Below the pieces are notes generated by a model, which saw only the letters and a program-made list of their open reading frames with translations, made no database searches and was not told where the DNA came from. Positions 4,302-10,118 of a DNA stretch of 29,487 nt are shown piece after piece. The DNA comes from a virus: the UHGV virus genome UHGV-0160150. One strand, written 5' to 3'. Position numbers and translations under genes: made by a program. Position 1 is the first letter of the stretch; every line of letters starts with the position of its first letter.

Positions 4302-4571
4302 TTACCTCGCCGTCAGTTGTTTTGATTTCCGGTAGCCTGCCGCGTAAATAGCTACGTTTGGCAGGCAAATACTTCCACTGCATTCATCTGCCTTCTTGCA
4401 GCGAAGGCTTCCGAGTGATGCTGCTTTATCTGCTCTGACGCAACCAGAGAGCTTTAGCGCAATTTTTCGTGCCAATCGCTGTTCTTGCATTGCCTGTTCA
4501 CGTTGAGCCTGTCTGCGTGCTCTGCGGCGATTTCTGGCGTTATCATCAGCCAGATAAGTAACGATTATCAT
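4302..4571 (-). CDS. N: N-like transcription antiterminator (arginine-rich motif)
   Basis: 89 aa from ATG at 4571 (GGAGG RBS, 5-nt spacer). N-terminal ARM DDNARNRRRARRQAQREQ resembles lambda N's QTRRRERRAEKQAQW. First gene downstream of pL/nutL; matching nut sites are present on both operons. Confidence 0.65.
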   Translation of the reverse strand: MIIVTYLADDNARNRRRARRQAQREQAMQEQRLARKIALKLSGCVRADKAASLGSLRCKKADECSGSICLPNVAIYAAGYRKSKQLTAR

Positions 4572-5001
4572 GTTGACCTCCGATGATTGGCTTTGGTGAT
4601 TAGGTGGACGGTACTGATCTCCGGCTTGGTTAGTGCTTCGCCTGGTCATTATCACGCCTAGTGACCCCCTGAGGATCGTCTCCTCGCCAGTGCAGGTCAT
4701 ATCGCATCAGTCTGCGCATTCACCCAATCCCAAAGCCAACTACTCTTTGACTCACACTCTCGCAGTGAGCGCGCTCATGCCATTGAGTCTCTGCCGCTTC
4801 ATCGCCGCTGATAACCGGTGCGCGTCTGGCATTCGCGCTGCTTTACCGGAGCTACTTTTAATATATTGACCCTAACCCGATGCTAAGCAGGCTCGCTCAA
4901 TGGCGACTCAGGGCAGCATCATTACTGCTGCATTGCCTTTCGGCTGCGGTCTAACCGCGTTAGTGCACCATTACGGCACCTCCTGTTTGGTTAAACTCAG
5001 T

Positions 5002-5042
5002 TCCCGCATTTCGGCGGGACAATCCCATCAATGTTAAAGAGC
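5002..5042 (-). promoter_or_regulatory. nutL candidate (boxA-like GCTCTTTAACA plus boxB hairpin)
   Basis: Minus-strand transcript reads GCTCTTTAACA, a 12-nt spacer, then TCCCGCCGAAATGCGGGA; the same boxA and boxB occur on the plus strand after cro. Confidence 0.55.
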
Positions 5043-5084: not shown

Positions 5085-5175
5085 CTTAAAGATAACTTAG
5101 GTTATAGGTGTGGTCAATAACCTAATTTATATTTTATGGTAAATAAGTTATAAGTGATGGATAACAAAGGTATTT
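5085..5175 (-). promoter_or_regulatory. oL/pL: leftward early promoter with ATAAC-N4-GTTAT operators
   Basis: Perfect operator ATAACTTAGGTTAT at 5092-5105; imperfect copies at 5117-5130 and 5161-5174. Minus-strand -35 TTGACC (5112-5117), 17-bp spacer, -10 TATCTT (5089-5094). Confidence 0.5.
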
Positions 5176-5304
5176 TATTTTTGTAAATGTTGCTGATTGA
5201 TTGGTGTTTGAGGGCTTACGTGCGGGGTGAAGGTGTTACCTTTGGCTTGATGCTTGTCTATGATGAGGATGGTTGATTGGGTGGTGAACGGCAGGAAAAG
5301 AAAA

Positions 5305-5330
5305 CCCGGCGCTGAGGCCGGGTGTTTTTA
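5305..5330 (-). terminator. Intrinsic terminator ending the cI operon
   Basis: Hairpin CCCGGC-GCTGAG-GCCGGG with T-rich tracts on both sides (possibly bidirectional), immediately 3' of the 98-aa gene stop. Confidence 0.6.
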
Positions 5331-5624
5331 GTCTTTTCTTTTGCTTAGCATTTCGTCGATTTCTAAGTCAATACGATATTGATCTATTGCTTTTCTCTCG
5401 TTTGGGGTTGGTATTTTATACTGTTCAATTAGATCTGTTGTGTATTTTATTTCATCTAATGTGATTTTTATATCAGAGAGAATCTCTTTTATATCAATTA
5501 GATGCTCTTCTTCTTTTGCGCGATTAGAGCTATGTTCAATCATTTGAGATAGCTTTTTGCTAATGCTTAGCAAAACAAAAAGAATGATGACCAAAACAAC
5601 AACAAAAACTATCAGAAATTCCAT
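5328..5624 (-). CDS. Small membrane-anchored coiled-coil protein (98 aa) in the rexAB-equivalent slot; function unknown
   Basis: N-terminal hydrophobic helix (FLIVFVVVLVIILFVLLSI) followed by a charged, heptad-like region. GGAGGG RBS; 40 bp downstream of cI on the same strand. Markedly AT-rich. Followed at once by the terminator. Confidence 0.6.
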   Translation of the reverse strand: MEFLIVFVVVLVIILFVLLSISKKLSQMIEHSSNRAKEEEHLIDIKEILSDIKITLDEIKYTTDLIEQYKIPTPNERKAIDQYRIDLEIDEMLSKRKD

Positions 5625-5664: not shown

Positions 5665-6372
5665 TTACCAACTATGAGACGACCAGAATACTCTGCCAAT
5701 AATCCTTACGGTTTCATGAAATTCATCTCTATCCATTACTTCATCCGGGTACTCTTCGCGATTTATTGATCTGATTATCACCGATGTAGGGGTGGCGATT
5801 AATGTTTTTACTCGTAACAAATCAGACTGGCAAATAGCGTAGGTTTTACCATCTCTGATTGTGGTATCTTGCGTGTTAACACCAACAACATCGCCATCGT
5901 GAAGCGTTGGTTCCATGCTTTGCCCTACAACCCTAACTAGCTTGGCTGATCTTTCTGATACTCCCATCTTTTTCAGATAGTGCTTTCTGAAAACCAAAGA
6001 GAACTCCGATGATTCCTCTAGCTCGCAGCTACCGCTTCCAGCTGAAAGCGAAACGTTAAGAAGAGGCAACGCAACAAACTCGTCATCGTTTCTTTTAATG
6101 TCTTCCCATACCACAGCTTTTAAAGATGACTCACGGACATTGGATGGTTCTTCATGTGCACCATCCCTCATTTCACCAATACCAGAACTAAGCCATTCAG
6201 GACGCACTTTTAAAGCATTGGCTAATTCAACCATCTTGCGAGATCCGTTTGTTTTACCGGACGACATCTTCTGTATGGCTGGCTGAGATATTCCAACCAT
6301 GTCAGCAAGCTGTGATTGTGATACCCCTGCTGAGCTCATGGCTGCATTTAGTCTTTCTGCGAATGTTTTCAT
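5665..6372 (-). CDS. cI: CI-type prophage repressor (HTH plus LexA/S24-like autocleavage domain)
   Basis: 235 aa from ATG at 6372 (MKTFAERL); the track start at 6402 is TTG. HTH SQSQLADMVGISQPAIQKM; C-terminal S24-like region (GQSMEP serine context, conserved Lys). Apparently leaderless: pRM -10 TAGATT lies 7 nt upstream. Divergent from cro. Confidence 0.85.
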   Translation of the reverse strand: MKTFAERLNAAMSSAGVSQSQLADMVGISQPAIQKMSSGKTNGSRKMVELANALKVRPEWLSSGIGEMRDGAHEEPSNVRESSLKAVVWEDIKRNDDEFVALPLLNVSLSAGSGSCELEESSEFSLVFRKHYLKKMGVSERSAKLVRVVGQSMEPTLHDGDVVGVNTQDTTIRDGKTYAICQSDLLRVKTLIATPTSVIIRSINREEYPDEVMDRDEFHETVRIIGRVFWSSHSW

Positions 6373-6379
6373 ACTCACA

Positions 6380-6450
6380 AATCTATAACTACGGTTATCC
6401 AAAGTAAAATAACAAAGGTTATTGCTATTTTTTATAACTTGAGTTATCTT
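6380..6450. promoter_or_regulatory. oR with divergent pRM and pR; three perfect 14-bp operators ATAAC-N4-GTTAT
   Basis: Operators at 6385-6398, 6409-6422 and 6434-6447. pRM (minus): -10 TAGATT (6380-6385), -35 TTACTT (6402-6407). pR (plus): -35 TTGCTA (6422-6427), 17-bp spacer, -10 TATCTT (6445-6450), the same -10 as pL. Confidence 0.6.
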
Positions 6451-6483
6451 TGGTTATAAGTAATGACCACAAGAGGTATGCTC

Positions 6484-6708
6484 ATGAATTTAGTAATTCA
6501 ACGAGCCTTGAAAATTGTCGGTAGCCAAAAGCGCCTTGCCGACAAGTGTGGTGTAACGCAGCCAGCAGTACACAAATGGCTGAAAGGCGGGTTGGTCTCT
6601 CCAGAGAAAGTTACCGCCATCGTTAACGCCACTGGAGGGCAGATCAAGGCTTACGAAATTCGCCCCGATTTGCCACACCTGTTTCCAAAACCGAATCAGG
6701 CAGCATAA
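6484..6708 (+). CDS. cro: Cro-like HTH regulator
   Basis: 74 aa from ATG at 6484 (AAGAGG RBS); HTH QKRLADKCGVTQPAVHKW. First gene of the rightward operon, divergent from cI. Confidence 0.7.
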   Translation: MNLVIQRALKIVGSQKRLADKCGVTQPAVHKWLKGGLVSPEKVTAIVNATGGQIKAYEIRPDLPHLFPKPNQAA

Positions 6709-6716
6709 GTAACACC

Positions 6717-6760
6717 GCTCTTTAACAGTCATGGTCCTCATTCCCGCCGAAATGCGGGAA
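6717..6760 (+). promoter_or_regulatory. nutR candidate (boxA-like CGCTCTTTAACA plus boxB hairpin TTCCCGC-CGAAAT-GCGGGAA)
   Basis: Same boxA and boxB as the minus-strand nutL site; located between cro and cII as in lambda. Confidence 0.55.
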
Positions 6761-6817: not shown

Positions 6818-7096
6818 ATGCAACTTACAAGTACTCGCAAGAAAGCGAATGCAATTACAAGCAACATCCTAAATCGAATTGCTGTACGTGGTCAGCGAAA
6901 GGTTGCTGATGCATTAGGGATCAATGAATCGCAAATTTCGCGATGGAAAGACAGCTTTATCCCAAAGATGGCCATGCTTCTGGCTGTGCTGGAGTGGGGT
7001 GTTGAAGACGAGGAATTAGCGGAGCTGGCAAAGAAAGTAGCCATGGTGCTGACAAAAGAAAAGCCTCAAGACTGCGGCAACAGTTTTGAGGCCTGA
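6818..7096 (+). CDS. cII: CII-like transcriptional activator
   Basis: 92 aa from ATG at 6818 (AAGGA RBS). Conserved ...[29 protein letters not shown]... matches lambda CII's SQISRWK...[10 protein letters not shown]. Confidence 0.8.
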
Positions 7097-7130: not shown

Positions 7131-7277
7131 ATGACAAAACAACTCAGTCCTTACCAGGACAAAATTCACAAACACATACTACGTGATCGCTTCCTGTCCA
7201 GCTTCAAGCAGCCTGGTCGATTCCGGGCTGAGTTGGAAAAAGTGAAGCTGATGCAGAAGGAGAAAGGTCATGAGTAA
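7131..7277 (+). CDS. Small hypothetical protein (48 aa) between cII and O
   Basis: ATG at 7131 preceded by AGGAG (6 nt); the stop overlaps the O start region. Confidence 0.4.
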
Positions 7278-8130
7278 TCTTGCAACCGTAACACATTTAA
7301 GGCCCTCACAACGGCCTGTGGAGCGTCGTGTGGCAGAAGTTGAAGATGGTTATACCCGTCTTGCAAATGCCCTGTATGAAGAGCTTATCGGCGCAGATTT
7401 AACAAAAAATCAGAGCAAGGTTGCCCACGCCATATGCCGTAAAACATACGGATACGGTAAAAAGATGGATCGCATCTCTGATAGTCAGTTAGCTCAAATT
7501 ACCAGGCTGCCAAGACAGAAGGTAAACAAGGCCAAGAATGAGCTTATCGCGATGAAGGTAATCCTTCGCGAAGGCCAGCAAATCGGGCCTAACAAGAACA
7601 TCGAGGAATGGCAAATCGAAGGGTGTCACTACTCTGGTGATAATGTCACTGCATTGGTGACAAAAAGTGTCACCAAAACGGTGACAGCGCTGTCACCAAA
7701 ACAGGGACACACAAAAGAAACTATTACAAAAGAAAAAAGAAATAATAAAAACACTATGTCCGAAAGTGTTCGGACGGAGTGTGAAAAATCATCTGACCGT
7801 CACGAAGAAACCGACAAGGCATTCGAGGAAATATTCTGGTGTGCAGGCATGCGGAAAGCCGGGAAAAAAAACGCAGCTTCGGCATTCAGAACACAGTTCA
7901 GGGAATGGCGTAAAACTACCAGGGGTACGGCAAGCGAGTTTGCCACGATGCTGGCAGAAGACATCGCATGCAGGAATGGTAAGCAGTTCGGATTCGACAG
8001 GTTGTTACCATCGAGCTACTTGAACGGTCAGCGCTGGAACGACGAAAAGCCAGAAACCATTCAACCACAATCCAAACCATCATCCGCAATCACCGTATCG
8101 AAAACTGGCTACGTGTTTTTCGACAGGTGA
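7270..8130 (+). CDS. O: Replication initiator, lambda O-like N-terminal domain
   Basis: 286 aa. N-terminal region ([53 protein letters not shown]...GPNKNIEEW) matches lambda O's ori-binding domain as recalled; C-terminal half differs. Contains the iteron ori. Confidence 0.8.
7624..7775. repeat. Putative replication origin inside the O gene: iterons, AT-rich tract, palindrome
   Basis: Palindromic iterons GGTGACA-AAAAG-TGTCACC (7656-7674) and GGTGACA-GCGC-TGTCACC (7680-7697) plus degenerate TGTCAC copies upstream; an A-rich stretch 7711-7750; inverted repeat GTCCGAA-AGTG-TTCGGAC (7758-7775). Same layout as lambda ori. Confidence 0.6.
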
Positions 8131-8133
8131 ACC

Positions 8134-8241
8134 ATGAAATCAAAAATCAAATCGCTACTGGTCGCTGGTTATAACCACGGCTGGTTAAGTATTTCGTTTG
8201 TCGATTTCTGGTTTAAAAATCTCAATCTGAGGGAATCATGA
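8134..8241 (+). CDS. Small ORF (35 aa) coupled between O and the primase-helicase
   Basis: ATG at 8134 with AGGTGA RBS overlapping the O stop; its TGA overlaps the primase-helicase ATG (ATGA). Found by eye. Confidence 0.3.
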   Translation: MKSKIKSLLVAGYNHGWLSISFVDFWFKNLNLRES

Positions 8242-10118
8242 GGCCAAGTGAACTTAGCGACCTGCTTTGGGCGCAGGTTGACAGGGTGGCTCCGCACCTG
8301 TTGCCAAATGGCAAGAAAGAGGGGCATGAGTGGGTTGCCGGTAACGTCAACGGTGACAAGGGAAACAGCCTTAAGGTCAACCTTAGCGGCAAGAAAAAAT
8401 GGGCTGATTTCGCTGAGGGAGACGGCGGTGACATGCTTGATTTGTGGATGGCATGTCGTGGAATTAACCTGCATCAGGCTATGCAGGAAGCGAAAGCATT
8501 TCTCGGTATCAAGGATGACGATCACCATTTCGATGCCAGACGTGAGAAAAAATTCTCCAGACCTGATCGCAAGAAAATCGCCCGCTACGTTACCAGAACA
8601 GAATCCCATCTTGAGTACCTGCAATCGCGTGGCATATCGCCAGAAATCGTAAAGCGCTACGAGGTTGTCAGCGGCAAGGTGTGGAATGGAGAGCGGGAAC
8701 TGGATGCTCTGGTGATTCCGTACAAACGCGATGGTGAGTTGTTGCAGGTCAAGCGAATCAGCACTGAGCGCCCGGACGGGAAGAAAGTCATTATGGCAGA
8801 AGGTGATTGCGAACCTTGCCTGTTCGGATGGCAGGCTCTGGACGCTGGCGTGAGGGCGGTTGTACTTTGCGAAGGCGAAATTGATTGTATGAGCTATGCG
8901 CAATACGGCATCTCGGCGTTATCCGTACCGTTTGGTGGAGGGAAAGGCGCTAAGCAACAGTGGATTGAGTTTGAGTATCACAACCTCGACAGGTTTGAGG
9001 AAATATTCATCTCGATGGACGTTGATGATGTTGGTCGTGAAGCCGCAAGGGAAATCGCAAGCCGACTCGGTGAACATCGTTGCCGTCTTGTTACTCTGCC
9101 GTGCAAAGACATCAACGAATGCCTGATGAACGGTGTTACCGAGGATGAAATCTGGCAGTACATCGGCACGGCATCCTACTTCGATCCTGAAGAACTCTAC
9201 AGCGCGCGAGAGTTTTACCAGGACACTATCAACGCTTTCTACGGCAAGCAGCAGTATCTGTTTAATCCACCGTGGGAATCTCTGGCAGATAAATTCCAGT
9301 TCCGTGAGGCAGAGTTGACGCTGGTCAATGGTGTGAACGGTCACGGAAAAACGGAGGTTGTCGGGCATATGGCACTTGAGGCAATGCGTCAGGGTGTGAA
9401 GACGTGCATCGCGTCACTTGAGCTGAAGCCTGGTATTCTCCTTAAGCGCCTTACCCGTCAGGCGACGTGCTGCAAGATGCCGCCAGTGCTGGAAATTGAC
9501 TCTGCATTTAAATTTTATGACGAAAGACTTTGGGTGTTTGGCCTGACCGGAACGGCGAAAGCCGACAGGCTGATCGAAATATTCGACTACGCTCGCCGCC
9601 GATACGGGATCCAGTTATTCATCATCGACAGCCTGATGAAATGTGGCATAGGCGACGATGACTATAACGGGCAGAAGGCGTTTGTTGACTCGATTTGCGA
9701 CTTCAAAAACAAAACAAACTCCCACGTCATTCTCGTTACTCACTCGCGAAAAGGAGACAGCGAAGAAAAACCAACCGGGAAAATGGACGTAAAAGGCTCT
9801 GGAGCGATAACAGACCTGACAGACAACCTTTTCATCATCTGGCGTAACAAGGCTCGCGAGAGAGCGTTACAGAGAGTTCAGAGTGGTGAAAAGATGTCAG
9901 AGAAGGACGAACAGCTACTGGCATCTCCGGCATCTGTTTTGATGCTTGAAAAACAACGTAACGGCGAAGGTTGGGAAGGTGGTGTCCCGTTGTTCCTTGA
10001 CGAGCAATCGCACCAGTTCCTGCAACTTGAATCAGGATCGCCATATAGCTACATCGCCAATATGCCGAAATCGGAATATGACGAGGCGTGGCGACAGGAA
10101 AACGTGACGGAGTATTAA
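8238..10118 (+). CDS. Primase-helicase fusion (Toprim primase N-terminal region, DnaB/RecA-like helicase C-terminal region)
   Basis: 626 aa. Toprim-like acidic motifs (VVLCEGEIDCMSY, ISMDVDDVGREAA); C-terminal Walker A-like VNGVNGHGKTE and Walker B-like LFIIDSL. Takes the place of lambda P. Confidence 0.8.
   Translation: MRPSELSDLLWAQVDRVAPHLLPNGKKEGHEWVAGNVNGDKGNSLKVNLSGKKKWADFAEGDGGDMLDLWMACRGINLHQAMQEAKAFLGIKDDDHHFDARREKKFSRPDRKKIARYVTRTESHLEYLQSRGISPEIVKRYEVVSGKVWNGERELDALVIPYKRDGELLQVKRISTERPDGKKVIMAEGDCEPCLFGWQALDAGVRAVVLCEGEIDCMSYAQYGISALSVPFGGGKGAKQQWIEFEYHNLDRFEEIFISMDVDDVGREAAREIASRLGEHRCRLVTLPCKDINECLMNGVTEDEIWQYIGTASYFDPEELYSAREFYQDTINAFYGKQQYLFNPPWESLADKFQFREAELTLVNGVNGHGKTEVVGHMALEAMRQGVKTCIASLELKPGILLKRLTRQATCCKMPPVLEIDSAFKFYDERLWVFGLTGTAKADRLIEIFDYARRRYGIQLFIIDSLMKCGIGDDDYNGQKAFVDSICDFKNKTNSHVILVTHSRKGDSEEKPTGKMDVKGSGAITDLTDNLFIIWRNKARERALQRVQSGEKMSEKDEQLLASPASVLMLEKQRNGEGWEGGVPLFLDEQSHQFLQLESGSPYSYIANMPKSEYDEAWRQENVTEY

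Follow-up and report, generated by a model that had tools for sequence, protein, structure and literature searches.

Which element lies between the divergent genes cI and cro of the virus genome UHGV-0160150, and to which immunity specificity does it belong? The stretch of DNA analysed, hereafter the window, comprises 29,487 bp, and the interval in question (6373-6483) is exactly the 111-bp gap between the ATG of cI (6372..6370, minus strand) and the ATG of cro (6484, plus strand). Very probably, this interval is the right operator/promoter region (operator OR with the promoters pR and pRM) of a lambdoid prophage immunity switch. As is usual for such a switch, a repressor combining a helix-turn-helix domain with an S24 peptidase domain and a cro gene diverge from a short intergenic gap, and a left operator set (OL) of the same sequence covers the promoter pL upstream of the antiterminator gene N. 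What can be read directly from the DNA compared is where the sites are, that they do not occur at random, which genes surround them and how recognition helix and site are associated across genomes. The OR1-OR2-OR3 layout proposed in a preliminary description of this locus was supported by the gene context, the repetition at OL, the conservation within the family and a sample of loci gathered by Cro alone.

Three perfect palindromes of the type ATAAC-N4-GTTAT (14 bp, even symmetry) are located in the gap and all six OR half-sites are identical (Table 1). The preliminary description had placed them correctly to the base. It had also given their distance as roughly two helical turns; the centre-to-centre distances of 24 and 25 bp correspond to ~2.3-2.4 turns rather than to exactly two, similar to lambda with 24/23 bp. 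The centre of OR2 is found ~43.5 bp upstream of the cI ATG. Five perfect copies of the palindrome occur in the whole window compared to 0 in each of 100 dinucleotide-preserving shuffles. When up to two mismatches were allowed, 23 copies were observed and 9.6 were expected.

Table 1. Coordinates of the genes, operators and predicted promoters of the immunity region in the window.
Feature	Sequence	Coordinates	Strand	Description
cI repressor		5665..6372	-	235 amino acids; Pfam HTH_3 and full-length Peptidase_S24; PHROG 4 'transcriptional repressor'
Cro		6484..6708	+	74 amino acids; Pfam YdaS_toxin, HTH_3 and P22_Cro; PHROG 35; helix TQPAVHKW
OR1	ATAACTTGAGTTAT	6434..6447	no strand	perfect palindrome; fills the pR spacer, 3 nt in common with the pR -10
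OR2	ATAACAAAGGTTAT	6409..6422	no strand	perfect palindrome; between pRM -35 (abutting) and pR -35 (1 nt in common)
OR3	ATAACTACGGTTAT	6385..6398	no strand	perfect palindrome; fills the pRM spacer, 1 nt in common with the pRM -10
predicted pR		6422..6450	+	-35 TTGCTA (6422-6427), 17-bp spacer, -10 TATCTT (6445-6450)
predicted pRM		6380..6408	-	-35 TTTACT (6408..6403), 17-bp spacer, -10 TAGATT (6385..6380)
OL1	ATAACTTAGGTTAT	5092..5105	no strand	perfect palindrome; overlaps the pL -10; present in 54 distinct OL regions
OL2	ATAACCTAATTTAT	5117..5130	no strand	one mismatch; 25 bp from OL1; touches the pL -35
predicted pL		5089..5117	-	-35 TTGACC, 17-bp spacer, -10 TATCTT; 9/12 in the promoter scan; leftward to nutL and N
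distal OL elements	ATAACAAAGGTATT (5161-5174)	5138..5174	no strand	orphan half-site GTTAT (5147-5151); site with 2 mismatches (5161-5174)

Around these sites, two divergent promoters were predicted. The hexamers named before, i.e., TAGATT at 7 nt (TGTGAGT) in front of the cI ATG, TTGCTA and TATCTT, were all found in place, whereas the pRM -35 TTTACT is a candidate added here. By these coordinates, the operators overlap both predicted promoters. The positions and transcription starts of pR and pRM are predictions backed by conservation among 52 distinct related OR regions, in which OR1 takes the same position throughout. The pR -10 TATCTT is found at the same position in 45 of these regions. 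Its -35 reads TGGACA in 38 and TTGCTA in 6, and the subgroup of the window has the weaker TTGCTA. For pRM, the -10 conforms to TAnATT in 50/52 and the -35 is TTTACT in 37/52 regions. The gap between the pRM -10 and the cI ATG measures 6-7 nt in 48/52 regions. Since this is too short for a Shine-Dalgarno sequence, the conserved gap supports a leaderless pRM/cI transcript, as in lambda. For cro, a Shine-Dalgarno sequence AAGAGG is present at 6471-6476, 7 nt upstream of the ATG. A TTG at 6402, with which the longest open reading frame (ORF) of cI would begin, was rejected as start codon, given that the family keeps the N-terminus MKTF and that the sequence in front of the ATG varies by a 1-nt indel. 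Variation among near-identical OR regions clusters at 6459-6461 (AGT, ATT, ATC, ACT), which would be roughly nucleotides +2 to +4 of a transcript from the predicted pR.

The same sites are found again at pL, which is the only 9/12 promoter in that area. The register at OL equals the register at OR: In both places the right half-site continues into the -10, giving GTTATCTT, and the second site has one base in common with the -35. Both pL and pR use the identical -10 TATCTT, relative to which OL1 is placed as OR1 is. As the palindromes are repeated at the two early promoters alone, each time with identical geometry, there is strong evidence at the sequence level for their being repressor operators. 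A site with one mismatch is present at the OL2 position in all 54 family OL regions, with TTTAT in most of them. Further upstream, 5138-5151 with its degenerate left half is a candidate OL3, and the occupancy of the distal OL elements is uncertain. Both distal half-sites (GTTAT at 5147-5151 and ATAAC at 5161-5165) are conserved across the subgroups of the family, and the HK639 subgroup has a full site with 1 mismatch at the first distal position. A conserved A/T block resembling AATTTATTTTTGTAAA follows the distal half-sites; the window version is TATTTTATTTTTGTAAA at ~5171-5187.

Closely related switches were found in named phages, in bacterial chromosomes and in viral contigs. The immunity region of the Stx1a-converting phage Stx1a_10051 is 99.3% identical to that of the window, and the region is also found in SH2026Stx1. 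OR alone is 99-100% identical in Stx1a_10051 and some Escherichia coli chromosomes; it is present in 163 of 5,426 complete E. coli genomes (~3%), in all cases chromosomally. In PA28 (cI 85% and DNA ~79% identical) the half-sites are kept, except for ACAAC in one half-site of OR2, with changes in all three central spacers and in the DNA between the operators. Three perfect sites are present in HK639 (Cro 84% identical), and two perfect sites plus one with a single mismatch in the Salmonella phage S.Kent 1-2-1. This maintenance of half-sites while spacers and inter-operator DNA diverge extends from PA28, HK639 and S.Kent 1-2-1 to dozens of viral contigs. Scanning viral contigs with a pattern of two adjacent sites yielded at least 120 loci, which gave 125 together with five named phage loci. 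The perfect triple at 24/25 bp occurs in 97 of the 125 (94/120 viral contigs listed and 3/5 named phages), and most also carry a remote perfect OL1. With SQPAIQK in cI, (S/T)QPAVHKW in Cro and three ATAAC-N4-GTTAT sites at 24/25 bp, the window matches HK639 and 50 or more distinct relatives.

Several points weigh against the interpretation as OR/pR/pRM. Most of the viral loci were selected by the operator pattern itself, so that their perfect sites are partly due to the selection, and many of these loci are close relatives. Because the viral set had been chosen by a DNA pattern, loci were also gathered by Cro peptide patterns alone. Strict patterns gave an independent sample of 8 loci (Enterobacter, Hafnia, Serratia, two Xenorhabdus species, Kluyvera, Symbiopectobacterium and an unclassified proteobacterial metagenome-assembled genome), and, in favour of the interpretation, all 8 carry the triple at 24/25 bp with 0-1 mismatch per site. 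The promoters pR and pRM each agree with the σ70 consensus in only 8/12 positions; both were not listed by a generic promoter scan, since its threshold is 9/12. At a spacing of 24/25 bp, neighbouring dimers would be oriented 100-140 degrees apart around the helix, and cooperative pairing of dimers at OR is assumed by analogy with lambda. A clean third site was not found in the distal OL of the window phage. Furthermore, no experimental description of this operator type was found in the literature searched for the half-site sequences and for HK639 and H-19B operators, the coverage of which was incomplete.

It is hardly credible that the palindromes are no repressor operators and instead repeats that arose by chance or targets of some other factor, e.g. 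a recombinase, a host protein or a replication protein. One more perfect copy, ATAACGCGCGTTAT at 278-291, does lie outside regulatory DNA, within an ead/Ea22-like frame of the minus strand that is cut off by the left end of the window. The copy codes for the peptide NNARY of the ead/Ea22-like gene, and coding constraint therefore explains it; it was rejected as an operator and is most likely a coding coincidence. As for the other copies, chance predicts none, and they are confined to the two early promoters. In eight bacterial species the sites go together with the cI/Cro helix, and an altered helix is accompanied by an altered site. A downstream position of pR is very improbable, though better than the foregoing. 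It would follow the HK639 RefSeq entry, in which a 'putative pR' is annotated at the equivalent position and which speaks against pR as given in Table 1. In the window, the corresponding promoter would be TTGAGT-16-TAATGA at ~6439-6466 and OR1 would then cover its -35. The -10 of this candidate matches the consensus in only 2/6 positions in the window, while the upstream pR has the family counts given above for TATCTT and TGGACA and shares its -10 and its operator register with the 9/12 promoter pL. Compared to the conserved TGGACA-17-TATCTT, the position annotated for HK639 is less likely.

Four functional sites instead of three at OR are unlikely as well, although among these alternatives they come closest. 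As fourth site, either the partial site TTATCTTTGGTTAT at 6444-6457, which has two mismatches, or GGTTATAAGTAATG over the pR start would come into question, with repression of pR or of cro translation as its added effect. GGTTAT at 6452-6457 is kept in PA28 despite diverged flanks, a related motif GTTATAAGTRATG recurs in OL, and four OR operators are given for H-19B in a review (PMC8065619). As cI, cro and operator of H-19B are unrelated to those of the window, its four-site layout is uninformative for the window phage. The candidate at 6444-6457 overlaps OR1 by 4 bp, hence, both sites cannot be filled together. It is also absent from HK639 and other subgroups, which retain OR1-OR3. The preferred interpretation is the three-operator region with pR and pRM as listed in Table 1.

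The proteins expected to bind these sites were compared with solved structures and with their relatives. The N-terminal domain of cI has the 434 repressor as closest solved structure (phmmer E-value 3e-7 to 1per/2or1 and related entries, residues 6-67, gap-free), and the recognition helix SQPAIQKM is part of this 434-like helix-turn-helix domain. In the S24 domain, direct reading reveals an Ala-Gly pair (LSA/GSG), the serine in GQSMEPT and the lysine in RVK, as in autoproteases of the LexA type. For Cro, the closest solved structure is the Cro protein 3bd1. The cI helix (I/V/L)(S/T)QPA(I/V)QK(M/L) is essentially invariant in 46 distinct cI of operator-sharing loci, and so is the Cro helix (S/T)QPAV(H/C)KW in 24 distinct Cro. 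The two helices are alike (SQPAIQK and TQPAVHK), which fits proteins competing for the same sites.

As proposed in the preliminary description, half-sites were compared between repressors carrying the same recognition helix. The same helix goes with the same half-site, at 0-1 mismatch per site, in 8/8 loci found by Cro, and an altered helix goes with an altered half-site. PhiR26_1 (SQAAIQK in cI, SQQAVYK in Cro) has the half-sites ACAAC and AAAAC, phiEt88 (SQANIQK, SQAAVGK) has ATAAC, ACAAC and AAAAC, and ST160 (AQPTIWR, KQPTVWR) has the operator ATACG-N4-CGTAT. Judged from these three phages, the half-site changes when the recognition helix changes. The likeness of the helices and their covariation with the half-site lend indirect support to the prediction that cI and Cro both bind the operators, with opposite site preference. 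The operator ATAAC-N4-GTTAT appears robustly defined by its internal repetition and by its association with the repressor and Cro helices across genomes.

Within the operator-sharing family, the N-terminal 68 residues of cI are 57-100% identical to those of the window, whereas the linker and C-terminal part is only 18-38% identical between subgroups. The cI of this family (e.g. at the loci L004 and L022) are domain mosaics with at least three C-terminal types. Conserved N-termini together with divergent C-terminal domains indicate one DNA-binding module which is joined to several C-terminal modules. Phages that are presumably homoimmune would differ in their oligomerisation and cleavage module.

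In co-crystal work on 434, the repressor residues Q28, Q29 and Q33 are reportedly placed at operator positions 1, 2 and 5, respectively. Aligned to the 434 helix, the window cI keeps Gln in place of Q28 and has Pro for Q29 and Lys for Q33. If the contacts can be transferred, these residues would face A at position 1 (A in both systems), T at position 2 (C in 434) and the fixed C:G at position 5. As all six OR half-sites are identical, differential occupancy would not arise from the contacted bases. The central 4 bp do differ between the operators of the 52 distinct OR regions. They are typically AAAG in OR2 (37/52; mean G+C 0.96 of 4) and typically TTGA or TTGG and conserved in OR1 (mean G+C 1.31 of 4), and they are variable in OR3 (mean G+C 2.54 of 4), where the window has TACG. 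In 434, G+C-rich operator centres weaken binding, and non-contacted central bases tune affinity. By this precedent, the repressor should bind most weakly at OR3, in agreement with the position of this site inside pRM.

In lambda, OR is composed of 17-bp operators of the type TATCACCGCCAGTGGTA and the pRM -10 is TAGATT. The window resembles lambda in the divergent cI and cro with three dyad-symmetric operators at a similar spacing. With the promoters as predicted, both also have OR3 touching a TAGATT pRM -10, a leaderless cI start 6-7 nt after the -10, OR2 next to the pRM -35 and a matching OL over pL; N/nut, cII and O come in the same order. Differences to lambda are the 14-bp operators and the identity of all six OR half-sites. 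Moreover, the window cI is without the N-terminal arm of lambda cI and closer to the 434 repressor, and the window Cro is a member of a YdaS/P22-Cro-like all-helical family and not of that of lambda Cro. The operators of 434 comprise 14 bp with ACAA-N6-TTGT. Shared with 434 are the homology of the cI DNA-binding domain, gap-free across all five helices, a near-identical recognition helix in cI and Cro, and operators of 14 bp with A at positions 1, 3 and 4. Tuning by central bases would also fit the identical half-sites with site-specific spacers. Unlike in 434, the operators have T at position 2 (434: C), a fixed C at position 5 and a spacing of 24/25 bp, the cI helix is SQPAIQK (434: TQQSIEQ), and both the C-terminal domain of cI and Cro are not 434-like. 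By its half-site ATAAC and its helix SQPAIQK, the window phage is assigned to an immunity group other than 434.

With HK639, SH2026Stx1, Stx1a_10051 and PA28 the window shares operator consensus, spacing, predicted promoter positions and the helices of cI and Cro, which suggests a common immunity group. The operators are not annotated in the records of these four phages. HK639-type and other subgroups differ in their C-terminal cI domains (identities as given above), in the stronger pR -35 TGGACA and in a better third OL site. 933W, H-19B and BAA2326 are Stx phages with a lambdoid switch consisting of cI, Cro and multi-site OR and OL, for which the operators have been mapped by experiment, and their immunity types were considered and rejected for the window. 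The 933W Cro is named in an annotation note of PA28. However, the 933W operator measures 15 bp, is centred on a base pair and is conserved at positions 2-5 (PMC3317979), and the window site has 14 bp, even symmetry and another half-site. H-19B had been considered due to its four-site OR and due to matches in O26 E. coli. Its cI (AF034975) gave a BLASTP E-value of 0.13, Cro gave no alignment and OR is unrelated. The repressor of BAA2326/P13374 is lambda-cI-like and binds weakly symmetric sites (PMC5977221); with its helix TQSAVNQ, it belongs to a different family. The preliminary description had deduced an immunity specificity distinct from lambda. This holds, and it extends to 434, 933W, H-19B and BAA2326; the specificity is not unique, being common to HK639, SH2026Stx1, PA28 and many prophages. 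Taken together, the switch is laid out like that of lambda, would be closest to 434 in its DNA-binding chemistry and belongs, as far as helices and half-sites tell, to the specificity group of HK639, SH2026Stx1 and PA28.

A working model can be formulated in which protein binding, transcription starts, activation from OR2, order of occupancy and base contacts are all predicted. During lysogeny, dimers of the 235-amino-acid cI would bind the three 14-bp operators via the 434-like domain with the helix SQPAIQK. Bound to OR1 and OR2, cI would block pR and keep cro, cII and replication silent, and the same cI at OL1 and OL2 over pL would silence N. From OR2, beside the pRM -35, cI could activate the weak pRM, which would yield a leaderless cI mRNA. 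At a high cI level, OR3 within pRM would be filled and cI synthesis would stop. The order in which the sites are filled would depend, as in phage 434, on cooperativity and on the central 4 bp, which are not contacted. Upon induction, the S24 domain is expected to cleave itself at Ala-Gly, stimulated by RecA. Subsequently, Cro with its helix TQPAVHK would occupy the same sites and turn off pRM.

The switch is of an ordinary kind which is widespread in enterobacterial prophages and involves no new regulatory principle; the operator itself is experimentally uncharacterised in the literature searched. Among the carriers of this immunity type are Stx1-converting prophages of E. coli O26 and O157; in Stx phages, spontaneous induction and the release of toxin are governed by the behaviour of repressor and operator. 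From operator consensus, promoter map and the list of presumably homoimmune phages, superinfection immunity between prophages could be predicted. Consensus and promoter map also offer targets for electrophoretic mobility shift assays and reporter studies. The natural series of helix and half-site variants is useful for the study of 434-type recognition.

Over the predicted pR start, CTTTGGTTATAAGTAATGA at 6448-6466 matches the footprinted OR3 of the BAA2326/P13374 (O104:H4 Stx2 phage) repressor in 18/19 positions, and a related sequence GTTATAAGTGATGG is present in the distal OL at 5147-5160. The 18/19 match may be a relic of recombination or a cross-repression site for a heterologous repressor. 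A far-reaching combination of these observations would be that site preference is encoded wholly in non-contacted bases (an extreme indirect readout of the 434 type), that one specificity has been recombined with at least three unrelated C-terminal cI modules and that BAA2326-type repressors engage in cross-talk at pR. This joint reading is quite improbable. If true, homoimmune phages would differ in induction and cooperativity, and a co-resident heteroimmune Stx prophage could repress pR of the window phage via 6448-6466.

The surrounding early region corresponds to lambda. To the right of cro follow cII (Phage_CII, E-value 7e-45), an O-type initiator and a primase-helicase; to the left of cI, a 98-amino-acid membrane ORF, a bidirectional terminator and the N antiterminator (4700..4302) were found. 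Thus, cII, O and N occupy their lambda positions. An identical 18-nt hairpin, TCCCGCCGAAATGCGGGA on the transcribed strand, is present at 5002-5019 (minus strand) downstream of pL and at 6742-6759 (plus strand) downstream of cro. The two hairpins are at the expected positions of the boxB elements of nutL and nutR and would serve the N antiterminator. Gene order, operators and hairpins therefore make up the full lambda early-control architecture.

The 98-amino-acid ORF (5624..5328, minus strand) lies directly downstream of cI, has an N-terminal membrane helix and matches only PHROG 18389 (function unknown). It is followed by the bidirectional terminator at 5304-5323. Given its location in the slot of lambda rexAB, it is a candidate for an exclusion or defence gene expressed in the lysogen. 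Just inside the 5' end of cII, a perfect TTGC-N6-TTGC, TTGCTTGTAATTGC, is found in antisense at 6851-6864 (minus strand), which is the position of the cII-activated promoter pRE in lambda, and an imperfect second copy is present at 6827-6840. The replication module (7270-10118) consists of a lambda-O-like initiator and a fused Toprim primase/DnaB-like helicase of 626 amino acids, with no P-type loader in the pair, whereas PA28 and H-19B carry O plus P.

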